NCBI GenBank assembly: GCA_964545385.1
Contig: CAZJFG010000001.1
Location: 40,365-104,364, forward strand
Direction of reading: 5' to 3'
Length of the DNA stretch: 64,000 bases
DNA from: an uncultured Gammaproteobacteria bacterium
Lineage (GTDB): Bacteria > Patescibacteriota > Microgenomatia > UBA1406 > GWC2-37-13
Shown: positions 14,569 through 38,397 of the stretch, one piece after another
How positions within the stretch are numbered: position 1 is the stretch's first letter
How the letters are laid out: every line of letters starts with the position of its first letter
Program-made: the position numbers and the translations under genes
Notes under the pieces: generated by a model
What the model saw: only the letters and a program-made list of their open reading frames with translations
Told to the model about the DNA's origin: nothing
The model's database searches: none

Positions 14569-14591
14569 ATATTAGATATCTAGTTAAAACT

Positions 14592-15014: not shown

Positions 15015-15036
15015 TTTTACTCACCTCCTTTCCCAA

Positions 15037-15071: not shown

Positions 15072-15175
15072 GAGGTTTAATTGAATCTACAATATACACA
15101 TACTGGAAAAGCTAATATGTCAGGAGTTGATTGTTAAGAAAAAATTGGCAAATAAGGCAATGGTTTTTTCCATAT

Positions 15176-19702: not shown

Positions 19703-20019
19703 TATTTTTCGAGTTCACTTGCGTTCGTTGCCTCCGGAGTAATTGTTGTTTCAGGTTCCTCTGCAATGGTCGGACTTAGCGAAGCAGTAGTTGGCGTTAT
19801 AAGCTCAAGTGTCGGTTCAACGGTTGGAACAACAGTTGTCGGAGTTGGTGTAATCGATTCCTGAACGGCGGTCGAGCTTATCTTTTTTTGAATCAAAACA
19901 AAAAGCATGATGGCCAAAATTAAAGCCGTCAAAGTAACAATAACAAGTAAAACTGTATTCAAACCGCTATCTTTACCTTCCAGTTTTTTTACATCAATTG
20001 GCGTGTAATTGTTGTCCAT
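19702..20019 (-). CDS. Membrane-anchored Pro/Thr-rich protein
   Basis: One TM helix (LLVIVTLTALILAIMLFVLI) followed by a T/P-rich tail. Confidence 0.5.
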   Translation of the reverse strand: MDNNYTPIDVKKLEGKDSGLNTVLLVIVTLTALILAIMLFVLIQKKISSTAVQESITPTPTTVVPTVEPTLELITPTTASLSPTIAEEPETTITPEATNASELEK

Positions 20020-23651: not shown

Positions 23652-24803
23652 ATGAATAAAAAGATTATTTTTATTTTAAGCGGAGTCCTAATTTTTATTA
23701 TCGTTGTTACAATAATTCTTTCAAGCATTTCCAAAAAAACAAGTCAGACCGGAACAAATAGAACAAATCAAAAAACAAAAACAACCAGCTTGGCAACTAA
23801 CAGTGAAAAAAGCTTTACACCAACCACTCAAAGCCTGACGACGATTGAGGATAATACTAATTTTAAAGTTGAGTATTCACCTCAGACCAAAAAATATGTT
23901 GTTACCAAAAAAACAGTTTCGGCAGATGAGGCGGTTTCCGACTGGCTGACTGAAAATAATCTTTCAACCACATTAAACAATGTTTCGATTGTTGACAAAT
24001 CTGGAGCTTCGGACCTTGCGGCAAATCCCGAAAACAATCAACCAACCAATCTGTCTGACAGTTCAATATCCATCTCCCCGACTGTTTTTTCACTCTCACC
24101 AACAAAAACCGAAGACGAGCTTGCTTATGAAAATAATGCCAAGGTCTTGATTGATCTTTTAAACATTTTTCTAAACGGCGGATCAACAAGCGAAACAACC
24201 AGTCCAACTACCGATTCATCTTCTCTATCTCCAAGTTCAATTCTAACTCTTTCGCCAACAAGCAAAAAAACCGCCGGTTCAGCATCAACAAAGTATGTTT
24301 ACTATGCCCAGTGCGGAGGAAGTTTCGACAACTATGCCCTACCTTCTGGCTGTACTGTCTGTGTGGCCGGTTGCGGCCCAACAACCGTTGCCATGATCGT
24401 CGCTTCCTATATCGACAAAAGTGTTACGCCAAAGACCGTGGTCGACCTTTACAGACAAAAAGGATATTTTTTAGGCTGTGCCGGTTCACGGACAACAGAC
24501 GCCAAAGCAGCTCTTGCTTCATATGGTGTTAAAACAACTGATTACATGACATTCAACTATGCGACAATAGATACGGCGGCTTCGGAGTTCAAAAATTACC
24601 TTAACAACGGCTGGACAATCTTTGTTCTGACCAGTTTTTGCGACAGCGGCTGCGGCCATTTTTTCTGGATTACAGCCCTTGGAGGCGACAACGCCACCTG
24701 GGCCTACGATCCTTATTATGGAAAAAGCCAGACACCACCGATTAATGAAAAAACTCGTTACCCGTTTCCAAAGTACCGGATTGCGTTTGGAGTTAAAAAA
24801 TAA
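23652..24803 (+). CDS. Membrane-anchored S/T-rich protein with C-terminal papain-like (peptidase C39-like) domain
   Basis: I place the start at MNKKIIFILSGVLIFIIVV (23652). C-terminal YYAQCGG...VAGCGPTTVAMIVASY (catalytic Cys context) and a downstream GCGHFFWITA (His). Confidence 0.7.
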   Translation: MNKKIIFILSGVLIFIIVVTIILSSISKKTSQTGTNRTNQKTKTTSLATNSEKSFTPTTQSLTTIEDNTNFKVEYSPQTKKYVVTKKTVSADEAVSDWLTENNLSTTLNNVSIVDKSGASDLAANPENNQPTNLSDSSISISPTVFSLSPTKTEDELAYENNAKVLIDLLNIFLNGGSTSETTSPTTDSSSLSPSSILTLSPTSKKTAGSASTKYVYYAQCGGSFDNYALPSGCTVCVAGCGPTTVAMIVASYIDKSVTPKTVVDLYRQKGYFLGCAGSRTTDAKAALASYGVKTTDYMTFNYATIDTAASEFKNYLNNGWTIFVLTSFCDSGCGHFFWITALGGDNATWAYDPYYGKSQTPPINEKTRYPFPKYRIAFGVKK

Positions 24804-24915
24804 TTTTCAATTTTTAAGTACCAATTTTCAATCAATTTATAATTAATTAATAATCAATAAAAAATTAATTTATTGAAAATTCATTGAAAATTGAAAATTG
24901 AAAATTGTAAATTTA
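24802..24915. repeat. Long imperfect AT-rich palindrome built from (TTGAAAATT)-type sub-repeats
   Basis: Left arm AATTTTCAATTTTTAAGTACCAATTTTCAATCAATTT. Right arm TTATTGAAAATTCATTGAAAATTGAAAATTGAAAATTG is its imperfect reverse complement. It fills the intergenic spacer. Confidence 0.65.
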
Positions 24916-24919
24916 TAGT

Positions 24920-25375
24920 ATGGATAAACAAAAACAAACTTTACTAATAATCGGCCTAGTTGTCCTTTTGGGATTTTTATCCATTATGGTCCTTGTTCTG
25001 CAAACCAAGAAAAACAATAAAGGGACGGACAAAACTGAAAACACAGTTGTTGCTACACCTACATCTGTTGAAAATATTTTTGAGGTTCCCTCGGTCTCAC
25101 CCGGCCTCTCACCAACCGATATTCCGGTCTCCACTCAGACCGGCGCCCTAGACGAATCTCTACCTGACACAACTCAAAATCTCGCCACCCAGAAACAAGA
25201 ACTAAAATCCAAGCTTCCCATAAATAACAATAACTTCGTCATTGTTTTTGATTACTCAGTCGACCAGTTCATCGTTACCTTAAAATCCCCAAAGGACACC
25301 AACAAGACGGTCTTTGAAGACTGGTTGGCCGAAAACTACCCCGCAATCCCGATAGACAGATTTACAATAAAATGA
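24920..25375 (+). CDS. Membrane-anchored hypothetical protein
   Basis: N-terminal TM (LLIIGLVVLLGFLSIMVLVL), a P/T/S linker and a small C-terminal domain. Confidence 0.6.
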   Translation: MDKQKQTLLIIGLVVLLGFLSIMVLVLQTKKNNKGTDKTENTVVATPTSVENIFEVPSVSPGLSPTDIPVSTQTGALDESLPDTTQNLATQKQELKSKLPINNNNFVIVFDYSVDQFIVTLKSPKDTNKTVFEDWLAENYPAIPIDRFTIK

Positions 25376-25383
25376 AAACTGGA

Positions 25384-25432
25384 GACTTGATGCTAGAATC
25401 TAGATATGATGCTAGAAATTTGAAGCTAGAAG
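25384..25432. repeat. Family-1 hairpin element, left arm (flanks four-helix-bundle gene)
   Basis: CTTGATGCTAGAATCTAGATATGATGCTAGAAATTTGAAGCTAGAAGG. Its ends are reverse complements of the ends of 25815..25868. Confidence 0.65.
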
Positions 25433-25789
25433 GTTTGCCAATTTCTTTTAAGTTTCGTTAATTTTCTACCTAAAATATTATATCTATTTACAAGATTATC
25501 GCAAAATTCTTTTTTCCAATATCTTAAATCTCTAGCAATTTCAATATGCACCTCCATTTCATTAGCAGAACCAATGCAAATATCTAGGTGTTTTTTAAAT
25601 TCTTTTTCATGATTCCTTTTAGACCAACCTTCGGCAATATTGGCTGGTATTGATTTTGGAACCTTTCTCATCTGGGAAATTAAATCGTTTTTTTTCAAAA
25701 AAAGGGAGTTTAACTATTTCTTGGTGGATTAAAATCATTAGCTGATATGATTCTTGATAAACTTCAAGATCACGAAATGACTTGATCAT
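25426..25789 (-). pseudogene. Four-helix-bundle protein (23S rRNA intervening-sequence protein / Avd family), split by a 1-nt frameshift in an A8 run
   Basis: ATG at 25787-25789 gives MIKSFRDLEVYQESYQLMILIHQEIVKLPFFEKK. The family continues as NDLISQMRKVPKSIPANIAEGWSKRNHEKEFKKHLDICIGSANEMEVHIEIARDL in the frame of track ORF 25426..25698. The two frames differ by 1 nt at T7-G-A8 (25688-25703). Confidence 0.75.
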
Positions 25790-25814
25790 AAATAAATGAT
25801 AACAGACTTATCAA

Positions 25815-25868
25815 ATTTCCAACTTCTAGCCTCGTTATCCAGTTTCAAGTATCTAGCCTCAAGCTTCC
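25815..25868. repeat. Family-1 hairpin element, right arm
   Basis: CCAACTTCTAGCCTCGTTATCCAGTTTCAAGTATCTAGCCTCAAGC. The terminal TCTAGCCTCAAG pairs with CTTGATGCTAGA of the left arm. Confidence 0.65.
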
Positions 25869-25905
25869 CATTGACCATGAACGATATTTCCGCTACTATG
25901 AATCT

Positions 25906-27609
25906 ATGTTCTCTTTTTTAAAGAAAGTATTCAGTATCACTAAAAAAGTCTTTCTTGTAATTGCTGTTTATTTTACCATCATTAGTCTTTTCATGTATTT
26001 TTTCAACAAAGAAAAACCAAAAACAACCTACGACCCTATCCAAAAAAATAGACAAGAAATATACAAAGTTATTAACGATAAAAAAATTGCATCGACAAAA
26101 GAAGGAAGAACAATATTGAAAATCTATCGGGCGGTTATGTGTTCGTTTATCGGCGAAGCCTGTACAGATAACCCTGAAGATGGAGACAAAAATTTTAATA
26201 AAAGTATTTTAGGTCGAACTAGTAACTTGATAACTCTTACTTATTCAAATCCACCGGCATCAGGTGTCTACTGGGCTTATTCTAGTCTGGAAAACGCAGG
26301 ATTTATTCCAAAAACCTATGCGGCCGAAGGCTTGGGATTCAACGCACTAAAACCTTTTATGAATATCTGGAAGGTATTTCGAGATATTTGCTATATGCTT
26401 CTTGTAATTGTTCTTATTGCCATTGGTTTTATGGTCATGTTTAGAACAAAAATTAATCCCCAGACTATAATTTCTGTGGAAAATGCCCTTCCAAGAATCG
26501 TAATTTCATTAATTCTTATTACCTTTTCTTTTCCAATCGCCGGTCTACTGATTGATTTAATGTATGTATTTATTGTTATAGCAATTGCCATTCTTGGTAA
26601 TAAAGGTAATTTTTTTAATATTACTGAGTTTCAAAATAAATATCTTGGGGCAAACTTTTTTACAATAGGCACTGGTCTTTTTCCTCTTGGTTTTTTTACA
26701 ACTATAGGAAGACTTGCGAACTCAATAGTTGCTTTATTACCAATAATTATAAACCAATTCCTAAGACTAGCCTTGGGAATTACGGGTTCAATTTTATTGA
26801 TGCAGCTTTCACACCCAATATTTAGCACACTTAGTTCAATAAATGAAACTGTTAGTGGGAATATAGCGACTGAACCCGTTGGAGGAATATTTGAAATTTT
26901 TATAGAGGGAATTATTTCCGTTTTATTAGGAATTGTTGGTTTTGGATTGGGCTATACAAGTTTAACTATTGTTGTTGGTATCTTAGTATTTTTTACTTTT
27001 ATATTTACACTTTTCAGAATTTTTTTTCTTCTTTTTTCTTCTTATATAAAAATTTTCTTGATGGCGATATTCTCGCCTTTTTTCGCCCTTTTTGAGGCTA
27101 TTCCTGGCAAAAACAGTTTTAGTTATTGGTTAAAAAGTCTTTCTGCGGAAATTTTTGTCTTTCCGATTGTTATTATCTGCTTTGCCCTTTCTTATTTAAT
27201 TATTAATATACTTCCTCTAAATGGTAATATTTGGCAACCTCCTTTTTTGACACAGCTTGACCCAGAAGCGTTTACGACACTTCTTGCGATTGGTATTTTA
27301 TTTTTAATTCCCGATATCGTTAAGCTTGTCAAACAGATGTTTGGAATAAAAGATACACCGATTAACCTTGGAGTTGGGACATATTTTGGTGGAGCAGGTG
27401 CTGCAATAGGTGGAACTCAAGGAGCTATGAGTGGTCTTTCATCCCTTTCACAAATGCCGTTTATTGGTTTGAAAATTAGACAGGCAGCTTTGAATAGACC
27501 AGATGACAAACCTGGCTTCTGGGGCACCCTATTCCCGGTATCTATAGCTGAAAAATACTACAATCAACAACTACAGAATGCTAATAAAGAAGCTAAAAAA
27601 AATGGATAA
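25906..27609 (+). CDS. Large polytopic membrane protein (possible TrbL/VirB6-like; function unassigned)
   Basis: 567 aa with at least 9 hydrophobic helices and a Gly-rich C-terminal segment GGAGAAIGGTQGAMSG. I recognise no enzymatic motif. The VirB6-like suggestion rests only on topology and pilin-like neighbours. Confidence 0.6.
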   Translation: MFSFLKKVFSITKKVFLVIAVYFTIISLFMYFFNKEKPKTTYDPIQKNRQEIYKVINDKKIASTKEGRTILKIYRAVMCSFIGEACTDNPEDGDKNFNKSILGRTSNLITLTYSNPPASGVYWAYSSLENAGFIPKTYAAEGLGFNALKPFMNIWKVFRDICYMLLVIVLIAIGFMVMFRTKINPQTIISVENALPRIVISLILITFSFPIAGLLIDLMYVFIVIAIAILGNKGNFFNITEFQNKYLGANFFTIGTGLFPLGFFTTIGRLANSIVALLPIIINQFLRLALGITGSILLMQLSHPIFSTLSSINETVSGNIATEPVGGIFEIFIEGIISVLLGIVGFGLGYTSLTIVVGILVFFTFIFTLFRIFFLLFSSYIKIFLMAIFSPFFALFEAIPGKNSFSYWLKSLSAEIFVFPIVIICFALSYLIINILPLNGNIWQPPFLTQLDPEAFTTLLAIGILFLIPDIVKLVKQMFGIKDTPINLGVGTYFGGAGAAIGGTQGAMSGLSSLSQMPFIGLKIRQAALNRPDDKPGFWGTLFPVSIAEKYYNQQLQNANKEAKKNG

Positions 27610-27702
27610 AACTTACTTTAAACTCTTAAAATAACAATTTTATTTAATTTAAGTAAAATGTTTAACTTATTCTTTTAAGCAATTGTGTCCTTAATAAATA
27701 AT

Positions 27703-27873
27703 TTATTGTTTTTTTGCATCTTCTGTAGAAACATAAAGAGCTTTTGCAAAATCACCAAGTTTAATTTTTCTTGATTTATTTTTTCTTACAAATCCATACA
27801 TATTTTTATCAATTGTCACTTGTGATTTTCCATTAAAAAGCAATCTACCAAATTTTTCTTCTCGGATGAACAA
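27703..27873 (-). CDS. Small PqqD-like (RiPP recognition element-like) ORF, TTG start, tentative
   Basis: Own translation gives (M)FIREEKFGRLLFNGKSQVTIDKNMYGFVRKNKSRKIKLGDFAKALYVSTEDAKKQ*. The pattern resembles PqqD-family peptide chaperones. It sits immediately downstream of the radical SAM gene. There is no ATG, and it is below the ORF-track length cut-off. Confidence 0.3.
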   Translation of the reverse strand: MFIREEKFGRLLFNGKSQVTIDKNMYGFVRKNKSRKIKLGDFAKALYVSTEDAKKQ

Positions 27874-27908
27874 ATTTGGTATAAATTTATAAAAACTATT
27901 TGGGTTTA

Positions 27909-28719
27909 TTAAGTCTGTTTGGGATAAAGAATAGTTGTGTAAAAAATCAGGTTTTCTTGAAAAATCGGCGTAAAGATCAGATTCTTTTCCATTTTTTCCC
28001 AGGTTTTATTAAGCCCATCAAATATATTTCCATATGTTAAAGAAAGATGTGGACAAGGTCTTATTGGACCATCAATCCCGATAATGATCAAGTTTCTTCC
28101 GGCACTGCATCTTTTTGCGCCAAAGAAATCATAATCATTTTGATTGTCAAAAAGACAAATCGGATAAGAAGTTAACGTATCAACCTCAATTCTGATTTCT
28201 TCTTTGATTCGTTTTAATTCATCGAGGGCATATCTAATTTGAGCAGGGGTCAGAGCGAACATACTAAAATCCTTACAAGGTAATGGTCTGCAAGCTTTTG
28301 TCGCTGAAAATTTAGAAGTTTCTAGTTCTTTTGCTAGTTTTGCTATTTTAAATAGATGATTTAATAACTTAATTTTTTTGGCGATTTCGTCGGTCAGTAA
28401 TGTTAAGTTAGAATTAATATTTGTTTGAATACTTTTTTTTGTTAAACGAACAAGGTGAGGATAAATATCATTCGGTAATAATTATTTTGTAAACTTGATT
28501 TTTTATTAACTCATCGACTATTTTTTTATATGTATTTTTAATTTTATTTTTATTAACGATGAGTTTTTTTGTTTCCGTGCTTCTCCAATAGTTATAACAA
28601 TACAAACAATTATGATTACAGTTATCCGTAACTTCCCAATGAGTATAAAGAAGACTTTTTAAAGTAATTAGACTTTGTTGTATAATCATTAATTTACAGA
28701 GCAATTGCAACTTACGCAT
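27909..28719 (-). pseudogene. Radical SAM peptide maturase with SPASM/Twitch-type C-domain, disrupted at the GGE motif
   Basis: Fragment 1 (28468..28719) has the CNHNCLYCY (CX3CX2C) cluster and ends ...VYKIIITE* where GGEP is expected. The reading frame continues in another frame from 28481 (LLPNDIYPHLVRLTKK...INSNLTLLTDEIAKK...) into fragment 2 (27909..28262). Fragment 2 carries CSAGRNLIIIGIDGPIRPCPH...YGNIFDGLNKTW. Confidence 0.75.
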
Positions 28720-28837
28720 GAATCACAAGAATAATAATGACAGTCGCAAGGAAATCTTAAACCGCCTAAATCTTACAGTAAATCCTCTAGCTTGTTTTTC
28801 TTTTAATATTTTTTTCTTTCTTTTCTGTCTTTCTCAT
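28689..28837 (-). pseudogene. Remnant of a Cys-rich RiPP precursor (SCIFF/ranthipeptide-like)
   Basis: Own translation of 28692-28772 gives DLGG-LRFPCDCHYYSCDSCVSCNCSVN, then TAA overlapping the ATG at 28687-28689 (TAATG). Upstream in the same frame is KKNKLEDLL followed by TAA. A Lys-rich leader MRKTEKKEKNIKRK lies in a neighbouring frame. Confidence 0.4.
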
Positions 28838-28973
28838 CACGTTACTCTTGTTCTTTTCTTTTTTTTCATTTTCAGCGTCTATCGCAGCTTGTTTCGCAGC
28901 ATTTATTCCGTTAAGAATTATTTTCAATCTTCTGAAGACATATGACAACATTATAATTTCCTTTATTATCAAC

Positions 28974-29681
28974 CTAACCACCAAATCCTGGAATTTTCAG
29001 AATATCCACTCCAATTAATCTCAATATAAATACTGAAAAAACAATAAGCATCAATCCCATGATACAAGAGATAAGAAGCTCCTGGGCTTTTTTGATTTTC
29101 TCCGGATTACCTCGTGAAGATTGAAGCTGGAAGACGGAAAAAATTATACAGATCATAGCAATAATTCCAGCCAAGCCCACTCCCCAACTAAGTAAAAATT
29201 CTGAAACAAAACTTGAAAAATCACCAGGGATACACCCCAAAGCTGTCCAAATTCCACCACTGTTCCCACATGTTTCACAGGTTGATTTTTCGTCTGAAGA
29301 AATATATTTATCGCAAAGGTTTTTTACCGCCTCAATTGGTGTAGGGGTAATCTGCGACTCTTTTAAACATGTACAATTGTTCAAATCGCTTGTGTCAGAA
29401 GGATAACCTATAACACAAGGAACTATATTTTGACTTCTTTTTAACAAAGAAATTATTTGGACAATTTTGTTGATAAACTCTATGCTTTGTAATGCGGATG
29501 GAATTGTTGGTGTTGAAACATCAATTTCTTGACAACATTTTATTGAGGTTGGTTCGGTTGCTTCCGCATTCCCGCAGGAAACGCCTGGAAGCGCAATGCG
29601 TGGAGTCGGTGTTTGAGCATAAACAGTATTAATTTTGCCAAACATTAATACTGCAAGGATAATTAATAATATCTTTTTCAT
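28974..29681 (-). CDS. Secreted Cys-rich protein with C-terminal T4SS-pilin-like two-TM module
   Basis: Signal peptide MKKILLIILAVLMFGKINTVYA, a Cys-rich ectodomain of about 140 aa, then GIWTALGCIP-TM-SSRGNPEKIKKAQELL-TM. Confidence 0.65.
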   Translation of the reverse strand: MKKILLIILAVLMFGKINTVYAQTPTPRIALPGVSCGNAEATEPTSIKCCQEIDVSTPTIPSALQSIEFINKIVQIISLLKRSQNIVPCVIGYPSDTSDLNNCTCLKESQITPTPIEAVKNLCDKYISSDEKSTCETCGNSGGIWTALGCIPGDFSSFVSEFLLSWGVGLAGIIAMICIIFSVFQLQSSRGNPEKIKKAQELLISCIMGLMLIVFSVFILRLIGVDILKIPGFGG

Positions 29682-29727
29682 AATTCTATTACACTCAATT
29701 TATTTATTTTTTTCAAATATAAACCTA

Positions 29728-32700
29728 TTATTTTTTACCTTCGGTATCTTGCATGGCTTTTTTTATATAAGCCCACATTAAATACATTGCTAAAAAATAG
29801 ATAATAGTCGGGGCGACGTCTCCAAAAATGAATGTATCTGTTTTAGCATCGAAGGCTAAATCTAGTTGATTAACCGAATATAGTCCTTCAATAGGAATAG
29901 CATGCAGTTCATGTCCAAGCCTTCGGAAGTAATCACGAGCCGCATTTTCATCCCAACTCATTGCATGAATACTGTGACCAAGAATTTTTGATAAAGAAAT
30001 TTTTTTGCCCATTGACCAACGTAAAGGAAGATTGAACGGGGCTCTAAAAAACGGCACTCTTGTATTGCTGTGTTCATAAAAATATTGAGTAACTACCGAG
30101 GCAAGAATATAGTTTGCCCGATGAGCATACTCTGACCCCATGACATTTTTAAGCGTGGAATAAAGAGTTTGATGAATCTCGAAAATTTCTTTTAAATCTC
30201 TCGATTCGGCAACGTGCTGCAGTTTTTCATCAAGATGGGAAATCTCAACAATTAGTTTAGAAACTGTACTAGCATCACCCAAGCGTCTTTTTATAATATC
30301 TTCACCAACTTCCCCAATATATTTATAGGAAGAAAAATGATCGAGATCAGGAGAAAAAGGATTGGTTCTTACTTGTTTTAGAGTCCAAATTTCACCTATA
30401 TGATAAAACAAACCAAAATGGCCGATCTCAAATTTACCTTCTTCATTAAAGCCACCAGAATCTTGTTTCTCCAAAATATTAAATAAACCGTTTTGACTAA
30501 ATATCAGGCTTTTTATTTTTTTATCGTCAAAATCCGTATCAGTAATTTCTCCTCTTTTTTTTAAAGAATAATTTATGCCTTTATTCTTAATGGTTTTCTT
30601 TTCGTCTTTTTGGAGCATACGTTCAAAAGCTGTCCCAGATTGTTGAGAAAAATATTCCATTGCAATTTTCCAGTCTTCACTGTCTTTTATTCTTTTACCA
30701 TTAAATTCCTTTCCTTTAAGTTGTTCTACTAATCCATCTTTATCAAAAATCCAAGCTCTCACTTTTCCCATCAATAAAAATGCCTCATCTCCCCAAAGCG
30801 CTCGTAATTTTTGCATTTTTTCAACCTGTTTTTCTATCTCAAGCTTTGTTTTCCCCAACTCGCCTTTATTTTTTTCTTTAAATGTTTTTTCATCAAGAAA
30901 AAAGTAGTTTATTTTGCTATCAAATAATTCGGGAGATATTTGAGATAAAAGCATAATAAAGTCTGCGGGGTTACGATGTAGATAGCGATAGAAGGTTTCG
31001 CCAATAATTTGATACATCTTCATCATTCGAAGCTCGGGAAACGTGAATTTTTTTTTCGTTCCTCTAGCATCAACTACAATTTCAAATTCTTTTTTGAGTG
31101 CATGCTCACCTTCGTTATATTCTTTAAATTCATAACTGTCAACTATATCTTTTTTAAGACGTTGGGCTAAATATCTTTTCATTTCATTTTCTGTACGCTC
31201 CTCTATCATCCACCATAAAGAAGAGTTACCATATATTTTCATGCTTAAGTCAAAATACTGGTCCCATTCTTTTTTCCCCCATTTATATTGATCTTTGATT
31301 CCTATCTTTTTTAAAGATTCACTTTCCTTCTCGGCAATTTCTGGTAACCTAACTTTTATTAGTGGTGAAACTCCCCAACCCATACGGCTGTTTGTACTTG
31401 TTGAAATATTCAGCATGCTTAATAGTTCTTGATAACTATGTTCTCTATCCAACAGTTCATTAAAAACTTTCTCGCCGTATTTGGCTTCTTTACCTTTGGC
31501 ATAATTATCAAAGCTTTCAGGAACCCAAGATTTTTTTTTGAATAATCTTGGGATAATGCCTCTTTGCTCAGGAAAAAGAGTTACCTCCATAGCCAGTAGA
31601 TGAGGAAAAAGTCCAGAAACCGGATAGCCTCGCCCCAACCCCCAGTTGTGTTTTGCTGATAATTGTGAAACTAAGGGATATATTCCTTTTAAGTTCGTAT
31701 CAACATCCGGATCGGCGGTACTAATAACTTCGGGATCAGTTAAACTTGCAAGACCTACTCCTATCGCATAAGTCCTGGCTCTTTTGTATTCCCACTCTTC
31801 GACATTTTCTTTTCTCAGAGATTTAATACGGGCCTTAATATTGTTTTCGATTTCCTCCATATCTTTAATACTATATCTCACTCCCTCCTCATCATATTTG
31901 CCCGAAAAAAGATCTGAAGGAATAGTGTTTTTATTAAGAGCTATGCGACGCCTCAAATGTAGAACTACTTCTTGTCTCGTTATTTCCATCATTCTGTCAT
32001 CCGGATCAAAGATCTCAGCAAGCTCTGAAGGAAAAAGTTGGCCTAAAAACTGTGGCCATTTTTCAAAACTACCAGCATCTTTTGCATAAAGCGGTAAATT
32101 ATGAAAAGTCTGTGCATATGTAAGGATTGTCCCTTGATATCTTCCTCGAACATCTTTGAGAAAATCAACGGTCTCGCGATCGTTTTGGAATTGATTTATT
32201 AAATTATCACAAAGATTTTCAATTACACCCTGCAGTCCTCCAAAATAATACTGATATTGGCTCGCGTTCATCGACATTGCCTGATCATAGAACTGTGAAG
32301 TATTATCGTGAATTGGTTCAAGAGCTTGAAAATGATACTTTGTAATCATTTTTTTAAATTTTTGTTTATCAAATTTAACATTTTTTTGTTTTTTATTATC
32401 TTTAGTTCTTGATTCTTCGAATATTATTATCTCGTTTTTTTTCAACTCATTCATAGAAAAATCATTACAAGCTCCGGTTAAAAGATTTCGCAGTCTGTCA
32501 TTCGTTAAAAAAACCATTAAGTGTTCAGGATCTGTTGAACGGAATATTTTTTTAAATAATTCTGAATAGTTTTTTAAATCGTCTTTTTCTAATCCAAGTT
32601 TTTTGATTGCAGATTCTAAAGATTCTGAGTCTCCCTCCACGCTATAGTAATATTTCATAAAAGCCATTCTTTCATCACTTGAAAGTTTATTTGGATCATT

Positions 32701-33477
32701 TACCTTGAGATAAATATTTTCTGCCAGTCTTTTCTGTATATCTTTGTTCAATTCTTCATATTCCTTCCTCTCTTCATACGTCGCACCGTTTTTACGTCTT
32801 CGATCATTATTTCCATTAAGCTCTTCAATAAAAAATTTTTCTTCTGCAGCTTCTTCACTTATTCCGTCAGTTGTCACGACCACTTCAATCAGTGATTTTT
32901 TTAATTGAGAATATAATTCATCATTAAACAGTTGTAACCAAATCATTTCTTTATATTCGTTTACCAACGAATCCGTATCTGTAATTTCTCCTTGTATAGT
33001 TTTTTTAAAAAGTTCATATAAAAAAGGAGCTTCTTGTTCTGTAACGTCTTGTGGTCGAATCTTTTCGCTTACTTTTTCTATGATTGTTTTAGATAAACCA
33101 GTAAGTTCAGGTGTATTTTCATTCTGAGGTGTTATTTTATTCTCTCGATTTTTATTTCCTAAAAGAAGCATTTTAATAACTTGAATTCGAACATTATCAG
33201 CTTTACCTTTTTCTGTAGTTTTGTCATTTTTTTCGCCAATAAATTCAGGTGTTTTTGTAGATTTTCGAAGTTCAGCTTCAATTTTATTTTTTAATCTACT
33301 TGCATCAATTGCAACCTCTAAAAACTCTTTTATTAATTCAGTTGAGGTTCTGGAGTTTATTTCCGTTTTTAAAGATTCTATCTCGCTTGCCCTTCCAGTT
33401 GACATGGGTTCTGGTGATGTCATATTTATTTTGATTAATTTATAATCAACTTTAACAGATTTTGGGAGGTGAAACAA
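29728..33477 (-). CDS. Giant (about 1250 aa) mostly helical hypothetical protein with a single C-terminal TM anchor
   Basis: Uninterrupted 1249-codon ORF in an AT-rich genome, with C-terminal VAPTIIYFLAMYLMWAYI followed by KKAMQDTEGKK. I found no Walker A, HExxH or other catalytic motif. The start may be the internal MTSPEPM. Confidence 0.8.
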   Translation of the reverse strand: MFHLPKSVKVDYKLIKINMTSPEPMSTGRASEIESLKTEINSRTSTELIKEFLEVAIDASRLKNKIEAELRKSTKTPEFIGEKNDKTTEKGKADNVRIQVIKMLLLGNKNRENKITPQNENTPELTGLSKTIIEKVSEKIRPQDVTEQEAPFLYELFKKTIQGEITDTDSLVNEYKEMIWLQLFNDELYSQLKKSLIEVVVTTDGISEEAAEEKFFIEELNGNNDRRRKNGATYEERKEYEELNKDIQKRLAENIYLKVNDPNKLSSDERMAFMKYYYSVEGDSESLESAIKKLGLEKDDLKNYSELFKKIFRSTDPEHLMVFLTNDRLRNLLTGACNDFSMNELKKNEIIIFEESRTKDNKKQKNVKFDKQKFKKMITKYHFQALEPIHDNTSQFYDQAMSMNASQYQYYFGGLQGVIENLCDNLINQFQNDRETVDFLKDVRGRYQGTILTYAQTFHNLPLYAKDAGSFEKWPQFLGQLFPSELAEIFDPDDRMMEITRQEVVLHLRRRIALNKNTIPSDLFSGKYDEEGVRYSIKDMEEIENNIKARIKSLRKENVEEWEYKRARTYAIGVGLASLTDPEVISTADPDVDTNLKGIYPLVSQLSAKHNWGLGRGYPVSGLFPHLLAMEVTLFPEQRGIIPRLFKKKSWVPESFDNYAKGKEAKYGEKVFNELLDREHSYQELLSMLNISTSTNSRMGWGVSPLIKVRLPEIAEKESESLKKIGIKDQYKWGKKEWDQYFDLSMKIYGNSSLWWMIEERTENEMKRYLAQRLKKDIVDSYEFKEYNEGEHALKKEFEIVVDARGTKKKFTFPELRMMKMYQIIGETFYRYLHRNPADFIMLLSQISPELFDSKINYFFLDEKTFKEKNKGELGKTKLEIEKQVEKMQKLRALWGDEAFLLMGKVRAWIFDKDGLVEQLKGKEFNGKRIKDSEDWKIAMEYFSQQSGTAFERMLQKDEKKTIKNKGINYSLKKRGEITDTDFDDKKIKSLIFSQNGLFNILEKQDSGGFNEEGKFEIGHFGLFYHIGEIWTLKQVRTNPFSPDLDHFSSYKYIGEVGEDIIKRRLGDASTVSKLIVEISHLDEKLQHVAESRDLKEIFEIHQTLYSTLKNVMGSEYAHRANYILASVVTQYFYEHSNTRVPFFRAPFNLPLRWSMGKKISLSKILGHSIHAMSWDENAARDYFRRLGHELHAIPIEGLYSVNQLDLAFDAKTDTFIFGDVAPTIIYFLAMYLMWAYIKKAMQDTEGKK

Positions 33478-33571
33478 GAGCGAAGAAACAAGCAGTTTTT
33501 CGGCATTTTTAGGCGTTTAGTTTGTATTGACCAAATCTTTTATTTTGCCGATTGCAAGATAATTATACCAT

Positions 33572-33597
33572 AAAAAGAGCTAAATAAAGCTCTTTTT
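33572..33597 (-). terminator. Terminator hairpin, followed on the minus strand by a TGgTATAAT extended -10 (33562-33567) for the 1249-aa gene
   Basis: AAAGAGC-taaataaa-GCTCTTT flanked by A/T runs. Confidence 0.5.
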
Positions 33598-33600
33598 AAA

Positions 33601-33655
33601 TTAAAAGTTAAAAGTGCAAAATTCAAAATTACAGTTTGAAATTGAAAATTTCAAT
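33601..33655. repeat. Family-2 hairpin element, left arm
   Basis: AAAAGTTAAAAGTGCAAAATTCAAAATTACAGTTTGAAATTGAAAATTTC. AAAGTTAAAAGT and AAAATTCAAAATTAC recur as reverse complements in 34021..34083. Confidence 0.6.
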
Positions 33656-34035
33656 ATTTATTTTTATTTTTTAAAGTCATAATAGAAGAACCTAATATTT
33701 TTGTTAATTCTTTAGTCCCATTTAACAATAATTCAATTTCCTCAATGAGGACTTGGTCAAAACCTTTTGAAAGAGAGAACTAGAATTTAGCTTCATTACC
33801 GCTTTTTAAAGCATGGTTAAGAAAATTTGTAAAATCACGTTTAGAACTAGCAGCTTGAGCTTCAATTATATTAGCTCCAATACTTGCTATTGCTCTTATC
33901 AATTGATCGCTTATAACCCAAGCCGATTTTTTATTGGGAAATCTATCTACTAAGAAAATTGTTCTTTTTGATAAAATAAATGCTCTACTTATAAGTACTT
34001 TCCTAAAATCTTGGCTTGTTTTCGTAATTTTGAAT
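33651..34035 (-). pseudogene. Four-helix-bundle (Avd / 23S IVS protein family) gene remnant with frameshift, in-frame TAG and no start codon
   Basis: Own translation gives helix 1, SQDFRKVLISRAFILSKRT, in one frame. The rest, IFLVDRFPNKKSAWVISDQLIRAIASIGANIIEAQAASSKRDFTNFLNHALKSGNEAKF-TAG-FSLSKGF...TLKNKNKY*, is in another frame. The TAG at 33780-33782 sits where the family usually has Trp. No ORF appears here in the track. Confidence 0.6.
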
Positions 34036-34083
34036 TTTAAATTGAAACTGTTAACTTTTAACTTTAAATTTTAAATTTAATTA
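34021..34083. repeat. Family-2 hairpin element, right arm
   Basis: CGTAATTTTGAATTTTAAATTGAAACTGTTAACTTTTAACTTTAAATT. Confidence 0.6.
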
Positions 34084-34338
34084 TCACACTCCCTTCAACA
34101 ACACGCTTAATCTGATCTTTAGTCCTCTGGCAATCTTGTGAAGAGCTCGGATAGTCGGGTTGGCTTTTCCTTTTTCAATGCGGGCGATATAGGTACGGTC
34201 GGTATCACAAAGCTCTCCAAGTCGTTCTTGAGATATTTTTTTTCGACATCTGGCGCAAAGAATATTTTCCCCTAATCTTTTATAAAAGAAGTTACCTTTC
34301 ATGGACATAAATTCAGATAAGATACAGAATATTTTCAA
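34084..34338 (-). CDS. XRE-family helix-turn-helix transcriptional regulator
   Basis: ISQERLGELCDTDRTYIARIEKGKANPTIRALHKIARGLKIRLSVLL. The start is possibly an internal Met. Confidence 0.8.
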   Translation of the reverse strand: MKIFCILSEFMSMKGNFFYKRLGENILCARCRKKISQERLGELCDTDRTYIARIEKGKANPTIRALHKIARGLKIRLSVLLKGV

Positions 34339-34418
34339 AGTTGTCGACGGACTATACGCTACAAAAATAAATTTTTAGCGCCGTGCAACAAATTATTTTT
34401 TCCCTTATATATCTTGGT

Positions 34419-34619
34419 TTATCTTCTATGAAAATAGTTTATAAAACTTGTGAAAATAAAAACTGTCAGTGAAGAGTTTGTCAAAAATTGAAAAAAATTA
34501 TCACAGTTGAGACAAGCTGATCTGTTAAACCAATAATAAATAAAATCAAAAATGAATATTAGTGGTAAAAAAAGAATTAAAAAAGGATTCTTATTTTCTT
34601 TATTCTGTTTTTGGCTCAT
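34419..34619 (-). CDS. Small hydrophobic ORF (doubtful)
   Basis: 66 aa with two hydrophobic segments. It overlaps the jag stop by 20 nt. No other support. Confidence 0.25.
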   Translation of the reverse strand: MSQKQNKENKNPFLILFLPLIFIFDFIYYWFNRSACLNCDNFFQFLTNSSLTVFIFTSFINYFHRR

Positions 34620-35073
34620 TACCTTTTAAGTCTATCACAAGTCGTCTGTCCCGGCCTTCATCAACCGAGTAAGAAACAAGTTCCGGGTAGTTGTTGGCAA
34701 TATACTCGTGAATAGATTTCCGCTCGTATGACGAAAGTTTGGAAAGATAACTTGGTTTTTTTGTTTCCTCAACCTGGCGAGCAAGGTCGTCGGCCATTGC
34801 CTCAAGTTTTTCTTTTTGTTTCTCCCTGTAGTCGTTGACATTTACCAAAAGTTTTATTGGTTCGCCAAACTGTTTATACAAAACAACCTCAAGAATTTTT
34901 TGTATGGCGCGGATTGTTTCTCCGTGACGGCCTATGACAGTCGGTGCTTCTTCTTCGGCTTTGATAATTACCAGAAAATTACCCTCAACTTCCGTCACTT
35001 CAACCTCAAACTGATTAATCATTTTGCCCAAAAGCTCTTCGGCTTCTTTTTTTATTACTTGTATTTTATCCAT
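34600..35073 (-). CDS. jag: KH/R3H-domain RNA-binding protein Jag (SpoIIIJ-associated)
   Basis: KH block VIGRHGETIRAIQ and R3H block SYERKSIHEYIANNYPELVSYSVDEG. Downstream of yidC. Confidence 0.85.
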   Translation of the reverse strand: MDKIQVIKKEAEELLGKMINQFEVEVTEVEGNFLVIIKAEEEAPTVIGRHGETIRAIQKILEVVLYKQFGEPIKLLVNVNDYREKQKEKLEAMADDLARQVEETKKPSYLSKLSSYERKSIHEYIANNYPELVSYSVDEGRDRRLVIDLKGNEPKTE

Positions 35074-35163
35074 ATTTAAAATTAATTAAAAATTCAAAAT
35101 GCAAAGTTTAAAGTTGCAGTTTAAAATTGAAAATTTTTAATTTTGAAATGTAATTTTTAACTT
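35074..35163. repeat. Family-2 hairpin element, gene-less ('empty') copy filling the whole jag-yidC spacer
   Basis: AAAAATTCAAAATGCAAAGTTTAAAGTTGCAGTTTAAAATTGAAAATTT abuts TTAATTTTGAAATGTAATTTTTAACTTTTAATTTTTAACTTTTAAC. GCAGTTTAAAATTGAAAATTT compares with ACAGTTTGAAATTGAAAATTT at 33630. Confidence 0.65.
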
Positions 35164-35967
35164 TTAATTTTTAACTTTTAACTGTCGATATTGAATAATA
35201 CTAAATATTGAAAAAATATTCCAATAAAGCGAAAGGCCGACAGGCAAGGTATAAGAAAAATAACCGATCATAAACGGAAATATATATTTCATCTGCATAT
35301 TCATTGCTTTCTGGAAGTCTTCGCTATTGCTTTTTTTGCTGTCTTTTTCCTTTCCGTTATCTTTTTTTTCAGTATAACCCGTATCCGTACTCATTCCTGT
35401 GGATTTAGCCTGAAAATACTGCAAAACACCGGTTATAACTGGAATCAAATAATAGTACCAAAGACCGCTTTTGGCTGGCGACAGACCAAGGTTAAACATA
35501 AAAAACCATGGATTAATCGTTTGAATTTTCAAAAAACCAAAATACAAAACTTTGTTTATCTCGACAATTAATTTATCAATATTTTTATTAAGCAAAAACA
35601 AAGAAAGTGTTTGATATAGGGCAATAAAAATCGGCATCTGGATAATGAGGAAAAGACAACCTGAAGCCGGATTTATACCGGCCGACTGGTAAAGTTTCAT
35701 TTGTTCTTCCTGAAGCCTTTTTGGATCTTTTTTATGTTTGGCGGTAAGTTTGTCAAGATAAGGTTTGATCTCATTCATTTTTTTGGCTGTTTCAAGTTGC
35801 TGTTTAAAAAAGGGGTGAAGCAAAAAGCGTACCGATATTGTCAAACCAATCATCGCCCAACCTAAAGAGCCGGGAAGATTTATTGAGGAAAAAATTTTAT
35901 AAAAAGCCATCAAAACATTGAGAATCGGAATAACAAAAATCGTATTAAAAAAATTTGGGGTTAGCAT
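35164..35967 (-). CDS. yidC: Membrane protein insertase YidC (short, Gram-positive-like form)
   Basis: YidC/Oxa1 core (GWAMIGLTISVRFLLHPF, MKLYQSAGINPASGCLFLIIQMPIFIALY, PVGLSLYWNIFSIFSIIQ). Confidence 0.9.
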   Translation of the reverse strand: MLTPNFFNTIFVIPILNVLMAFYKIFSSINLPGSLGWAMIGLTISVRFLLHPFFKQQLETAKKMNEIKPYLDKLTAKHKKDPKRLQEEQMKLYQSAGINPASGCLFLIIQMPIFIALYQTLSLFLLNKNIDKLIVEINKVLYFGFLKIQTINPWFFMFNLGLSPAKSGLWYYYLIPVITGVLQYFQAKSTGMSTDTGYTEKKDNGKEKDSKKSNSEDFQKAMNMQMKYIFPFMIGYFSYTLPVGLSLYWNIFSIFSIIQYRQLKVKN

Positions 35968-35974
35968 ATAATTA

Positions 35975-36082
35975 TTTGATGCTAGATACTTGATGTTTGA
36001 ATCTAGATTGTGAATCTTGATGTCAGAGATTTGATCTCCAAACTTCTAGTTTCTAACTTCTTTATCTAGTTTCTAACTTCTA
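35975..36082. repeat. Family-1 hairpin element, gene-less ('empty') copy filling the yidC-rpmH spacer
   Basis: TTTGATGCTAGATACTTGATGTTTGAATCTAGATTGTGAATCTTGATG, then the mini hairpin GAGAT-TTG-ATCTC, then AACTTCTAGTTTCTAACTTCTTTATCTAGTTTCTAACTTC. It shares TTGATGCTAGA, GAATCTAGA, AACTTCTAG and TATCTAG with the arms at 25384/25815. Confidence 0.65.
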
Positions 36083-36214
36083 AACAGTTAACTTCCTTCT
36101 TCCGGTTTGTCTTCTTCTTTTGAGAACTTTTCTTCCTCCTTTTGTCTCCATCCTCACTAAAAATCCGTGTTTTTTATTCCTTTTTCCTTTTTTGGGTTGC
36201 CAAGTTCTTTTCAT
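36080..36214 (-). CDS. rpmH: 50S ribosomal protein L34
   Basis: Own translation gives [44 protein letters not shown]. It is below the ORF-track length cut-off. Confidence 0.9.
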
Positions 36215-36258: not shown

Positions 36259-38397
36259 TTATTCGTAATTGGTTTTCAATATTGAATCTTTGTTATTGTT
36301 GAATATTTGAAAAATAGCCTCTGTCACAAAAGGTGTGAAAGGATGCAGCATCTTCAAATTTTCAAGATAAACGTTTTTCAATATATCCAAAGCTTCTATA
36401 TTACCATTTTGTAACTCTTCCTTCAACTCCTCTATATAGAAATCGGCAAAACGGTGCCACAAAAAATCATAAACTAGTCCAAAAGCCTTTGAGAATTGAT
36501 AGTTTTTCATGAATTTCAGATAATCAGTTTTTTCTTTCTCAAATTCTTTTTTTAAAGAGTTTAGAATTTTAGGGTTAGAATTTTTGGGTTGTTTCGGATT
36601 TGGAATTTCGGATTTGGAATTTCGGTTTATTTCGATGAACCGTCCGATATTCCAAACTTTATTTACAAAATTCCTCATCCCGATTACTTTTTCTTCGCCG
36701 AAAGAAAGATCGTTTCCTTCTTTTGTTTCAAATACAAGTGCGGTTCTTAAAGCATCTGCTCCGAACTTATCAATCATTACCATCGGATTTATAACATTAC
36801 CCTTGCTTTTACTCATTTTTTGGCCGACCCGGTCGCGAACCAAGCCATGCAGAAAAACCGTCTTAAACGGTACTGTCCCTGTTGTAAAATAACCGATCAT
36901 AATCATCCGCGCTACCCACCAGGGTAAAATATCATATCCTGTTTCCATCACCGACGTCGGATAAAATTTTTCAAACAGCTTTGAGTTTTGAGTTTTGGAT
37001 TTTGAGTTTGAGTAACTCATAAGAGTTGCGAAAGGCCACTGTGCCGAGGAAAACCAAGTATCAAAAGTATCTTCATCCTGTTCAAACTCACATTTTCCGC
37101 AGATTTGACATTTTTCCGGTTTTTCGACAGAAACAAACCATTTTTTCTCTTTTTTACAAAAATAAGCAGGAATTTGAATACCCCAAACTACCTGACGTGA
37201 GATATTCCAGTCATGAAAGTTTTTTAACCACCGGATAAGAATCTTTTTAAATTTTGCAGGAACAACTTTTATCTCCTCTTTTTCGATCAAAGGGATGACT
37301 TTTTCAGCAAGAGGTTTTATTTTCACAAACCATTGCTCTTTAGCCAAAGGCTCAATCGGTCGACCGCATTTATAACAATGACCAACACGATGTATATAGT
37401 TTTTTTCCTTTTCTAAAAGCTGCAGTTGTCTCAATTTTTTTACGACTATTTCTCTTGCTTGTTTGGGATAAAGATCCAAATACTCTTTGGGTACATTGAT
37501 CATTTTTCCGTTAAAATCAATAACTTTGATAAACTCAAGACCGTGTTTTTTACCAAGCGTCCAGTCGGCTTCGTCGTGAGCCGGAGTAACTTTTACCGCT
37601 CCTGTCCCAAATTTTGGGTCAACCGATTCATCGGCGATTATTTTAACTTCCCGATTGACAATCGGTACGATTACTTTTTCGCCAATCAGATTTTTGTATC
37701 TTTTGTCATCGGGATGGACAACAACAGCCGTATCACCAAGTAATGTCTCCGGCCGGGTTGTTGCTACAACAATAAACTTTGAGTTTTTAACTAAGGGATA
37801 ACGGATAAACCAAAGTTTTCCCCGTTTTTCTTTATAGACTACCTCCAGATCAGAAAAAGAAGTACCACAATATGTACAGTAATTTACCAATCTTTCATTC
37901 CGATAAACCAGTTTTTGATCAAAAAGTTTTTTAAAAGTTTTGTATACTATTTTGACGATATCTGGGTCAAGAGTGAATTTTTTTTTCTGCCAATCTAAAC
38001 CAAATCCCAATCGCTTCAACTGATTCTCCATGGTTGATTTATTTTGCTGGACAAAGTCCCAGATCATCTTAAAAAGTATCTTACGGTCGTAGTCAAACCG
38101 ACTTTTTCCCTTTTTGGCCAGAAATTTTTCAAAAACAAACTGTGTTTCAAAACCCGCATGATCGGCACCGGGCAGCCACAATACTTCGTCTCCCAGCATT
38201 TTGTGGAAACGAATCATTATATCTTCGTAGACATACATTACATGACCCATATGTAAATCGGCATTTGCGTTGGGAGGTGGAAGAATAATCGTAAAGGCTG
38301 GCTTTTTTGAGTTCTCGTCTGCACAAAAAAACTTATTTTCTTCCCAAAAACGATAGATTTTTTCCTCAACAAGCTTTGGCTGAAATTTTGATTCCAT
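36259..38397 (-). CDS. valS: Valine--tRNA ligase (short form, no long C-terminal coiled coil)
   Basis: PPPNANADLHMGH (HIGH), WLPGADHAGFETQ, editing-domain TTRPETLLGDTAVVVHPDD, KMSKSKGN. Confidence 0.93.
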   Translation of the reverse strand: MESKFQPKLVEEKIYRFWEENKFFCADENSKKPAFTIILPPPNANADLHMGHVMYVYEDIMIRFHKMLGDEVLWLPGADHAGFETQFVFEKFLAKKGKSRFDYDRKILFKMIWDFVQQNKSTMENQLKRLGFGLDWQKKKFTLDPDIVKIVYKTFKKLFDQKLVYRNERLVNYCTYCGTSFSDLEVVYKEKRGKLWFIRYPLVKNSKFIVVATTRPETLLGDTAVVVHPDDKRYKNLIGEKVIVPIVNREVKIIADESVDPKFGTGAVKVTPAHDEADWTLGKKHGLEFIKVIDFNGKMINVPKEYLDLYPKQAREIVVKKLRQLQLLEKEKNYIHRVGHCYKCGRPIEPLAKEQWFVKIKPLAEKVIPLIEKEEIKVVPAKFKKILIRWLKNFHDWNISRQVVWGIQIPAYFCKKEKKWFVSVEKPEKCQICGKCEFEQDEDTFDTWFSSAQWPFATLMSYSNSKSKTQNSKLFEKFYPTSVMETGYDILPWWVARMIMIGYFTTGTVPFKTVFLHGLVRDRVGQKMSKSKGNVINPMVMIDKFGADALRTALVFETKEGNDLSFGEEKVIGMRNFVNKVWNIGRFIEINRNSKSEIPNPKQPKNSNPKILNSLKKEFEKEKTDYLKFMKNYQFSKAFGLVYDFLWHRFADFYIEELKEELQNGNIEALDILKNVYLENLKMLHPFTPFVTEAIFQIFNNNKDSILKTNYE

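Follow-up and report, generated by a model that had tools for sequence, protein, structure and literature searches.

Heptad-repeat hairpins with and without a four-helix-bundle gene in protein-gene spacers of a Microgenomates bacterium and their likeness to 23S rRNA intervening sequences

The nature of the intervening sequences (IVSs) of 23S rRNA has been unsettled since 1990–93. Those that bear an open reading frame (ORF), as in Leptospira, Coxiella burnetii and Azospirillum, carry a PF05635 gene in the loop of a long stem of terminal inverted repeats; their ORFs decay frequently and their distribution is sporadic. In the Coxiella IVS the stem is cut by RNase III; GACAGAT heptamers, three in tandem and variable in copy number between strains, precede the ORF, with the 5′ cut at the foremost of them, and both a `remnant of transposition' and a `mobile element whose ORF aids mobility' are still listed among the ideas about IVSs (PMC4990558). 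ORFs of the 23S_rRNA_IVP type are also known in 16S and 23S insertions of the Candidate Phyla Radiation (CPR; PMC11270868). Here, we analyse five loci in a 64 kb stretch of contig CAZJFG010000001.1 (the window), a stretch with a G+C content of 35% whose proteins find their best matches in Microgenomates/Roizmanbacteria of the CPR. Two of the loci are imperfect stems that enclose a four-helix-bundle gene (cassettes 1 and 2) and three are hairpins without a gene, and each of the five occupies one complete spacer between protein genes (Table 1). A preliminary description of this DNA had compared them with ORF-bearing IVSs. The finding is real and that reading is supported. We favour, with some reserve, the view that all five loci belong to one class, a heptad-repeat hairpin cassette of the 23S rRNA IVS type that is mobile or turns over rapidly.

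The arms of both cassettes and of the three gene-less hairpins are built of tandem heptads, GAnnnnn on one arm and the complement on the other. On the purine-rich arm the unit is TAGAnnn/TTGAnnn in Family 1 (cassette 1 and the rpmH–yidC hairpin), AAAAGTT in Family 2 (cassette 2 and the yidC–jag hairpin) and GAAAATT in the third hairpin. Over 40 arms, taken from 17 cassettes and the gene-less loci of the window, self-identity falls from 0.54 at lag 7 to 0.47 at lag 14 and 0.43 at lag 21, compared with 0.28 for random 70-mers of the window; the individual window arms reach 0.48–0.75 at lag 7 against this background. When 11 cassettes are aligned, T.GA columns recur without variation every 7 nt, the positions between them are variable, and seven of the 27 consensus pairs change on both sides and still pair. 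The earlier division into two families plus a related (TTGAAAATT)n palindrome therefore does not stand as a division, since the arms follow one tandem-heptad grammar; the palindrome itself proved to be strong (see below). A stop triplet that recurs every 7 nt would close all three reading frames, and this was tried as the purpose of the heptads. It fits the window arms, which contain TAG, TGA and TAA, and fails in GC-rich relatives such as L027 and L033; frame blocking is therefore no general explanation.

Cassette 1 encodes a protein that matches Pfam PF05635 with an E value of 3e-19 as the present fragment and 5e-26 after repair of the frameshift, and TIGR02436 with an E value of 2e-25. Its gene is disabled by a +1 frameshift, owing to one extra base in a T8 run (25688–25695), and the resulting 90-residue fragment appears as a gene call in 11 public contigs; homologues of the protein are 63–79% identical. 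Aligned with the reverse complement of the other arm, each arm matches at 37 positions and mismatches at 12 (score 45; best of 500 shuffles 29), which bears out the earlier placement of Family 1 arms around a four-helix-bundle gene at 25384–25432 and 25815–25868. The arms of cassette 2 (55 nt) are 76% complementary. Its gene remnant, a distant member of the same family (PF05635, E = 3e-17; TIGR02436, E = 4e-22), has a tryptophan codon replaced in frame by TAG (EAKF*FSLSK in the window versus ETKFWFVLSK in the intact L150 orthologue), and L036 and L150 have intact orthologues at this position. In two independent pseudogenes, the window copy (EAKF*FSL) and L009 (AEG*AKR, ∼728–730), a conserved tryptophan codon has become a stop, and both cases fit TGG-to-stop transitions. 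No further member of the family is encoded elsewhere in the window.

The fold of the protein is that of Xcc0516 (PDB 2GSC; match E = 6e-11), a four-helix bundle described as forming pentamers (Lin 2006, cited in PMC3936711), and the family is shared with Avd, the accessory protein of diversity-generating retroelements (DGRs). The ratio of nonsynonymous to synonymous substitution rates (dN/dS) between cassettes is 0.03–0.16; the protein is under strong purifying selection. About six of 21 CPR copies are nonetheless broken.

No ungapped inverted repeat in the window is longer than the three of Family 2 type, namely the arms of cassette 2, the yidC–jag hairpin and the (TTGAAAA)n hairpin. Across the loci, arm scores range from 45 to 64 against shuffle maxima of 29–46, with the Family 1 gene-less copy as the sole exception. 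The yidC–jag hairpin is a palindrome with 52 nt arms that are 81% complementary (score 56; shuffle maximum 40), and over 53 nt its left arm shares 85% identity with that of cassette 2, 1.4 kb away, in keeping with the earlier claim that Family 2 arms flank the gene remnant and recur without a gene at 35074. When folded, it reaches −23.3 kcal/mol on the plus strand (z = −3.5) and −12.2 kcal/mol on the minus strand (z = −0.4). Over 35074–35190, the strand antisense to the operon folds far better because all G.U-compatible mismatches fall on that strand. The (TTGAAAA)n hairpin has 50 nt arms with 82% complementarity (score 64; shuffle maximum 46) and a fold z of about −5 on both strands. The third gene-less locus is the weakest. 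The quoted motifs and the GAGAT-TTG-ATCTC centre are present at 35975–36082, where Family 1 arms had been reported to recur directly abutted; the hairpin itself is weak (arm score 27; shuffle maximum 29), and its pairwise likeness to the occupied copy is confined to short words. Its better blastn partners are arms in other genomes (L006 and L014). The words quoted in the preliminary description do occur in the window above chance; for TTGATGCTAGA with at most one mismatch there are six occurrences against 1.0 expected. The spacers that hold the three gene-less hairpins have a G+C content of 12–30%. Across segment 30080–42214, which includes three of the five loci, four independent assemblies are 99.8–99.95% identical and free of gaps, so the hairpins are not assembly artefacts. 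These near-identical strains (L001–L004) show no indels and are too close to reveal variation of the hairpins.

A genome scan with the repaired cassette 1 protein returned 29 loci. The same architecture stands beside homologous genes in more than 30 loci from the CPR, Omnitrophota, Bacteroidota, Brocadiaceae, Nostoc and an Azospirillum 23S IVS. In nearly all CPR loci a purine-rich heptad array precedes the gene and a complementary array runs from the stop codon on. In most of 30 loci, pairing between the 100 nt flanks on the two sides of the homologous gene yields −48 to −68 kcal/mol, compared with a mean of −24.4 (standard deviation 8.4, minimum −45.6) for the flanks of 75 control genes; the predicted stems contain 36–77 bridging pairs. 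The median periodicity statistic is 0.33 upstream and 0.30 downstream in 36 loci versus 0.04 and 0.07 in 126 control genes (Mann–Whitney p = 2e-13 and 7e-13, respectively). Outside the CPR the same arms were found in Omnitrophota, Brocadiaceae, Cyclobacteriaceae, Mesonia and Aminicenantia. Complementary heptad arms are thus a conserved trait of the gene family across phyla.

The comparison with IVSs is most direct on plasmid AZO_p2 of Azospirillum lipoferum (L145), where the homologous gene lies inside a 23S rRNA gene (Rfam LSU) between inverted GGACAGA/GGACGGA arrays; this copy is a classical 23S rRNA IVS. Together with the Coxiella heptamers (PMC4990558), it upholds the likeness that had been proposed. 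In five CPR loci (L010–L013 and L015) the cassettes lie in or next to 16S or 23S rRNA genes, and weak group I intron matches (E = 1e-6 to 5e-3) overlap or adjoin them. Rfam detected no rRNA or known RNA family around the unit at the remaining loci, where the arms abut neighbouring ORFs with gaps of 62–95 nt. The Nostoc plasmid pCC7120gamma contains three heptad arrays in all within 50 kb: two are complementary and bracket the sole four-helix-bundle gene; the remaining one is a hairpin without a gene (z = −4.9). On this plasmid of Nostoc PCC 7120 (L153), an inserted ISL3 transposase separates the four-helix-bundle gene from its 5′ heptad arm (12986–15507), the outer ends of the unit carry an additional, non-heptad inverted repeat (GGCAACTTTTGGTGATCT...), and a gene-less heptad hairpin lies downstream of mobF (37988–38260).

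Occupied and empty loci had been interpreted as the trace of a mobile or excisable cassette, and presence/absence at orthologous spacers in relatives (L014, L034, L036 and L150) bears this out. The rpmH–yidC spacer holds a 115 nt hairpin in the window, measures 6 nt in L034 and L036, and contains unrelated hairpins in L037 and L150. At yidC–jag the window has a 90 nt hairpin, L034 has 12 nt, L149 has 4 nt and L036 has another hairpin. The spacer between the C39-like ORF and the 151-residue ORF contains a 116 nt hairpin in the window and measures 1 nt in L014; in L006 it holds a hairpin of Family 1 type. The site between the helix-turn-helix (HTH) gene and the large ORF, with a pseudogene cassette in the window, is empty in L148 and L149 and retains one arm in L034, and the cassette is intact in L036 and L150. 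Lastly, between the 151-residue and 567-residue ORFs the window cassette is inverted, whereas in L006, L009 (with an in-frame stop) and L014 the cassette is co-oriented with its neighbours; at this site the flanking proteins are 41–45% identical between genomes and the cassette protein 63–75%. The Roizmanbacteria contig L006 carries a gene-less Family 1-type hairpin in the spacer that holds the (TTGAAAA)n hairpin in the window, a full cassette and a second gene-less hairpin nested directly 3′ of the gene of that cassette (hairpins at 2311–2436 and 3364–3500).

Two comparisons concern movement of the complete unit. Within one metagenome-assembled genome (MAG), the units of L005 and L023 are 91% identical over ∼700 nt among unrelated neighbours. 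Those of L005 and L007, from different MAGs and again with unrelated neighbours, are 80% identical over 593 nt, including terminal inverted repeats of ∼100 nt. Since the unit with its arms and outer stem is 80–91% identical in unrelated contexts, at least the full cassette moves as one piece. L005 and L023 also share a ∼180 nt non-coding segment upstream of the cassette (2668–2844 and 443–621, respectively; 85% identical), which contains internal hairpins and has no Rfam match. A scan of viral contigs gave no relatives and no viral carrier, and PADLOC gave no match.

In the model that we propose, a full unit would consist of some 7–9 tandem heptads (GAnnnnn; in the window TAGAnnn/TTGAnnn or the AT-drifted AAAAGTT/GAAAATT), a short leader, a 120-codon PF05635/TIGR02436 gene and a complementary array that starts at the stop codon. 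The two arrays are predicted to pair into a stem of 50–75 bp with the gene in the loop. Host transcription through the unit would turn the arms into double-stranded RNA, which RNase III would cut by analogy with the Coxiella IVS, so that the insert would be removed from, or insulated from, the host RNA in any transcript. The stem is thus probably an RNase III substrate, and such removal would account for the tolerance of the unit in rRNA, in introns and in operons such as rpmH–yidC–jag. In operon spacers the constraint on the RNA stem would be relaxed. The three gene-less hairpins may have arisen by loss of the gene, may be non-autonomous copies or may serve as landing pads with the same arm grammar. 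Selection on the RNA stem predicts an excess of G.U over A.C among mismatches on the host strand, and such an excess is present in the units hosted by rRNA genes or introns (32 versus 12, p = 0.0037). With all loci pooled p is 0.11, the bias being confined to rRNA-hosted units, and the duplex energies of sense and antisense strands differ from locus to locus with no consistent sign.

Several results weigh against this reading. In spacer-hosted units G.U and A.C mismatches are equally balanced (85 versus 81), with no strand asymmetry and therefore no sign of RNA-stem selection at the loci of the window; the complementarity of the arms could instead be maintained by DNA-level homogenization of the two. 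For the Family 1 gene-less copy the gain in folding over shuffles is slight (z = −1.7 on the plus and −2.9 on the minus strand). The proposed comparison of each fold with shuffled controls favours the (TTGAAAA)n hairpin on both strands and the yidC–jag hairpin on the plus strand only. In some cyanobacterial loci (L147 and L146) the arrays on the two sides are direct rather than inverted, and the stem is therefore not universal. A metagenome scan with CAGTTTRAAATTGAAAATT for further Family 2 copies returned 103 stretches; the 80 listed contain single chance-like matches, none in the source genome or in a comparable hairpin, which makes the scan uninformative for copy number. No target-site duplication was found on comparing filled and empty rpmH–yidC and yidC–jag spacers. 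The 64 kb window contains no rnc gene, which is uninformative either way. Finally, `empty' yidC–jag spacers already contain short heptad arrays over the 3′ end of yidC and the spacer in the hairpin-less relatives L034 and L148 (four units in L148), as growth in place would produce.

This last observation is the starting point of the most serious rival explanation, in which the hairpins come first and the gene second. The heptads would be simple repeats grown by replication slippage in AT-rich spacers and made palindromic by inverted duplication or template switching; the gene would insert preferentially into them, and gene-less loci would be unoccupied targets. In keeping with this, the yidC-proximal arm of the window hairpin overlaps the homologous C-terminal codons of yidC, unrelated hairpins occupy the same spacers in L036, L037 and L150, and gene-less IVS-like hairpins and intergenic heptamers are known without any gene (PMC4692102, PMC4679880). 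Against it, the whole unit, arms and outer stem included, recurs at high identity in unrelated contexts. The likeness between the left arms of the Family 2 gene-less hairpin and cassette 2 is unexpected under independent slippage, and the solitary arm in L034, where relatives carry a cassette, represents decay rather than a target; both observations, like the match of the Family 1 copy to cassette arms of other genomes, speak for descent of the gene-less hairpins from cassettes. We consider a hairpins-first origin conceivable but unlikely, though the gene-less hairpins may have grown in place from short ancestral arrays.

The hairpins could also be regulatory signals of the host, namely terminators, attenuators or mRNA-stabilizing or processing signals, to which the four-helix-bundle gene is incidental. 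Each hairpin does fill exactly one spacer in or between operons, and some of these spacers contain some hairpin in several lineages. On the other hand, the five loci include no site with a G+C-rich stem followed by a T-run, as in an intrinsic terminator, and neither terminator-like nor promoter-like sites exceed their counts in shuffles. The closest relatives are hairpin-free at the same spacers (1–12 nt), the Family 2 gene-less hairpin is stable solely in the orientation antisense to yidC and jag, and the cassette occurs in either orientation at one site. We regard a regulatory role as quite improbable. An internal leaderless promoter was also considered and rejected: the motif TGnTATnAT at 6–7 nt before the ATG is confined to WIN1, L005, L006, L007 and L023, and the promoter scan is at chance.

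The opposite orientation of the cassette at an orthologous site could also be accounted for by a DNA-level recombination element, with the arms as cruciform or hairpin sites for a trans-acting recombinase (modelled on integron attC sites, IS200/IS605 ends or an invertible switch) and the inverted window cassette as the flipped state. The absence of a G.U versus A.C strand bias in spacer-hosted units and the outer non-heptad terminal inverted repeats of L005/L007 and Nostoc are compatible with it. However, no recombinase, transposase, integrase or reverse transcriptase adjoins any unit in the window, and the arms, which vary from copy to copy, are only ∼75% complementary. The inversion includes the 5′ leader and the stop-in-arm layout as well as the gene, so it is the whole unit that differs in orientation and not a segment between fixed arms. 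This explanation is very improbable in our estimation.

The IVS-type cassette can thus be set against the systems that it most resembles. Like ORF-bearing IVSs, the window units have a PF05635 ORF in the loop of a long stem, heptamers beside the ORF and decayed genes. Unlike them, they lie in protein-gene spacers, one is antisense to its neighbours, gene-less and full versions exist side by side in one genome, and excision by RNase III is proposed for them by analogy. The absence of a matching described element class, as stated in the preliminary description, does not hold: there is a precedent, of which these are the kind outside rRNA, and heptamers had been noted earlier in one IVS. Short enterobacterial gene-less 23S IVSs and repeats resembling miniature inverted-repeat transposable elements (Correia elements, REPIN) are likewise imperfect non-coding hairpins of ∼100 nt whose presence varies between relatives. 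They differ in that the window loci show no target-site duplication and no cognate transposase or REP-associated tyrosine transposase (RAYT) was found, and in that the window arms are tandem heptads rather than unique terminal repeats, with copies that are at most 85% alike (the best arm-to-arm identity in the 64 kb examined of a 594 kb contig).

Intergenic heptanucleotide repeats, such as the short tandemly repeated repetitive (STRR) sequences of cyanobacteria, share the 7 nt unit, the intergenic position, sometimes inverted arrays and a lineage-specific presence at syntenic spacers. The taxa that contain such repeats are rich in four-helix-bundle genes. Described units include GGGAATC/GGGGAYT in Xanthomonas and Nostoc (PMC4692102) and TAACTGA in Beggiatoaceae, Cyanobacteria and Bacteroidetes (PMC4679880). 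Their unit sequences differ from those in the window, many of the arrays are direct only and the reports draw no link to PF05635. DGR Avd belongs to the same superfamily and is a pentamer-forming four-helix bundle, whereas the window genes stand alone between their arms, with no adjacent reverse transcriptase or template/variable repeat pair. Homing-endonuclease genes in group I introns are also free-standing small ORFs in a peripheral stem-loop of a structured RNA, and the CPR cassettes in rRNA genes lie beside or overlap weak group I matches; nevertheless, the cassette protein is not of a nuclease family and there is no intron around the window units.

Table 1. Features of the five loci and of the genes around them (window coordinates).
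Feature	Coordinates	Strand	Remarks
(TTGAAAA)n heptad hairpin, gene-less	24802..24913		Occupies the whole C39-like ORF/151-residue ORF spacer
Cassette 1, 3′ arm	25379..25432	minus	Pyrimidine-rich on the strand of the gene; begins at stop codon 25426-25428
Cassette 1, four-helix-bundle gene (PF05635/TIGR02436)	25426..25789	minus	120 codons; antisense to both neighbours
Cassette 1, 5′ arm (sense of the gene)	25815..25868	minus	Purine-rich heptads GAGGCTA GATACTT GAAACTG GATAACG ...; lag-7 self-identity 0.51
Cassette 2, 3′ arm	33594..33650	minus	
Cassette 2, four-helix-bundle pseudogene	33651..34020	minus	PF05635 remnant; no start codon; TGG to TAG at 33780-33782
Cassette 2, 5′ arm	34026..34080	minus	Heptads AAAGTTA AAAGTTA ACAGTTT ...
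Heptad hairpin, Family 2, gene-less	35074..35181		Fills the yidC–jag spacer; overlaps the six terminal codons of yidC
Degenerate heptad hairpin, Family 1 type, gene-less	35968..36082		Fills the rpmH–yidC spacer; end overlaps the rpmH stop codon
C39-like ORF	3′ end at 24803	plus	
151-residue ORF	24920-25375	plus	
567-residue membrane protein	25906-27609	plus	
1249-residue ORF	33477..29728	minus	
HTH gene	34338..34084	minus	
jag/khpB	34600..35073	minus	Host gene; KH and R3H domains
yidC	35164..35967	minus	Host gene; one gene-less hairpin on each side
rpmH	36080..36214	minus	Host gene (ribosomal protein L34); adjoins the Family 1 gene-less hairpin
leuS	38397..36259	minus	

The earlier statement that none of the five loci is in rRNA is confirmed. 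Rfam matches in the 64 kb window are limited to one 5S rRNA (57878–57994), two tRNAs and one cobalamin riboswitch, with no 16S or 23S rRNA; the 5S gene being solitary, the rRNA genes are unlinked. None of the loci is an insertion in 23S rRNA helix 9, 25 or 45. Rfam likewise gave no Intron_gpI match in the window at the gathering threshold, and no intron core surrounds the ORF-bearing stems. The neighbours of the arms are rpmH, yidC, jag, the HTH protein, membrane proteins and ClpB, with no reverse transcriptase and no transposase near the loci. The 1.4 kb region 27610–28973 contains only short ORFs and resembles a decaying gene region; within it, an 83-residue fragment (28468–28719) matches the start of a radical SAM domain. 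ClpB (19994–23617, minus strand) is unusually long at 1207 residues, with ∼270 residues between the end of the second AAA domain (∼781) and the start of the D2-small domain (∼1050). The DNA that encodes its N-terminal low-complexity extension (∼23300–23430) obeys the Family 1 heptad grammar (TAGAAAC TGGAGGC TTGACGT TTGAAGT TTGATTA; GAGTTTT GACATTT GAGTTTT). A sixth element at this position was rejected, as there is no fold signal (z = +0.3 and +0.5); the stretch may be arm-derived sequence absorbed into a coding region, or a coincidence.

The setting of the gene within host operons has been noted before: 18 genes of this family lie inside cas loci (PMC3936711). On plasmid pPg_01 of Pseudanabaena galeata (L147), the four-helix-bundle gene (46268–46627) is located between cas6 and cas4. 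The heptad arrays around it, (GCTAAAA)n on the upstream side and (GCCAAAA)n on the downstream side, are direct and nearly perfect (lag-7 identity 0.9) and cannot form a stem; this arrangement is relevant to the `association' with cas loci that has been published for the family. The presence of a PF05635 gene within an operon, such as a cas locus, need not imply a functional link. In the literature searched, which left out most subscription journals, we found no account of the hairpin cassette outside rRNA or of heptad arms as a general feature, and no link between non-rRNA hairpins or heptamer repeats and this gene family. The present data add that units of the IVS type, alike in gene family and heptad stem, also occupy ordinary operon spacers and, next to weak group I intron matches, rRNA genes. 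The unit is near-identical in unrelated contexts, variable at orthologous sites and equipped with a protein under strong purifying selection.

These observations raise the questions of whether the stem is an RNase III `self-removal' device that lets the gene sit anywhere in a transcript, whether an Avd-like pentamer binds heptad-repeat nucleic acid and whether the intergenic heptamers of cyanobacteria, Xanthomonas, Beggiatoaceae and Bacteroidetes are derived from cassettes. More speculatively, and as a possibility that we hold to be doubtful, the heptad-arm hairpin with its four-helix-bundle gene might constitute a bacteria-wide class of mobile cassette, of which 23S rRNA IVSs are merely the best-known habitat and whose Avd-like protein recognizes, maintains or copies the heptad arrays. 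If this were true, the reported association of the family with cas operons would reflect the selfish entry of cassettes into operon spacers, the hairpins without a gene would be non-autonomous copies or homing sites, and IVSs, intergenic heptamer repeats and a large uncharacterized protein family would become linked.

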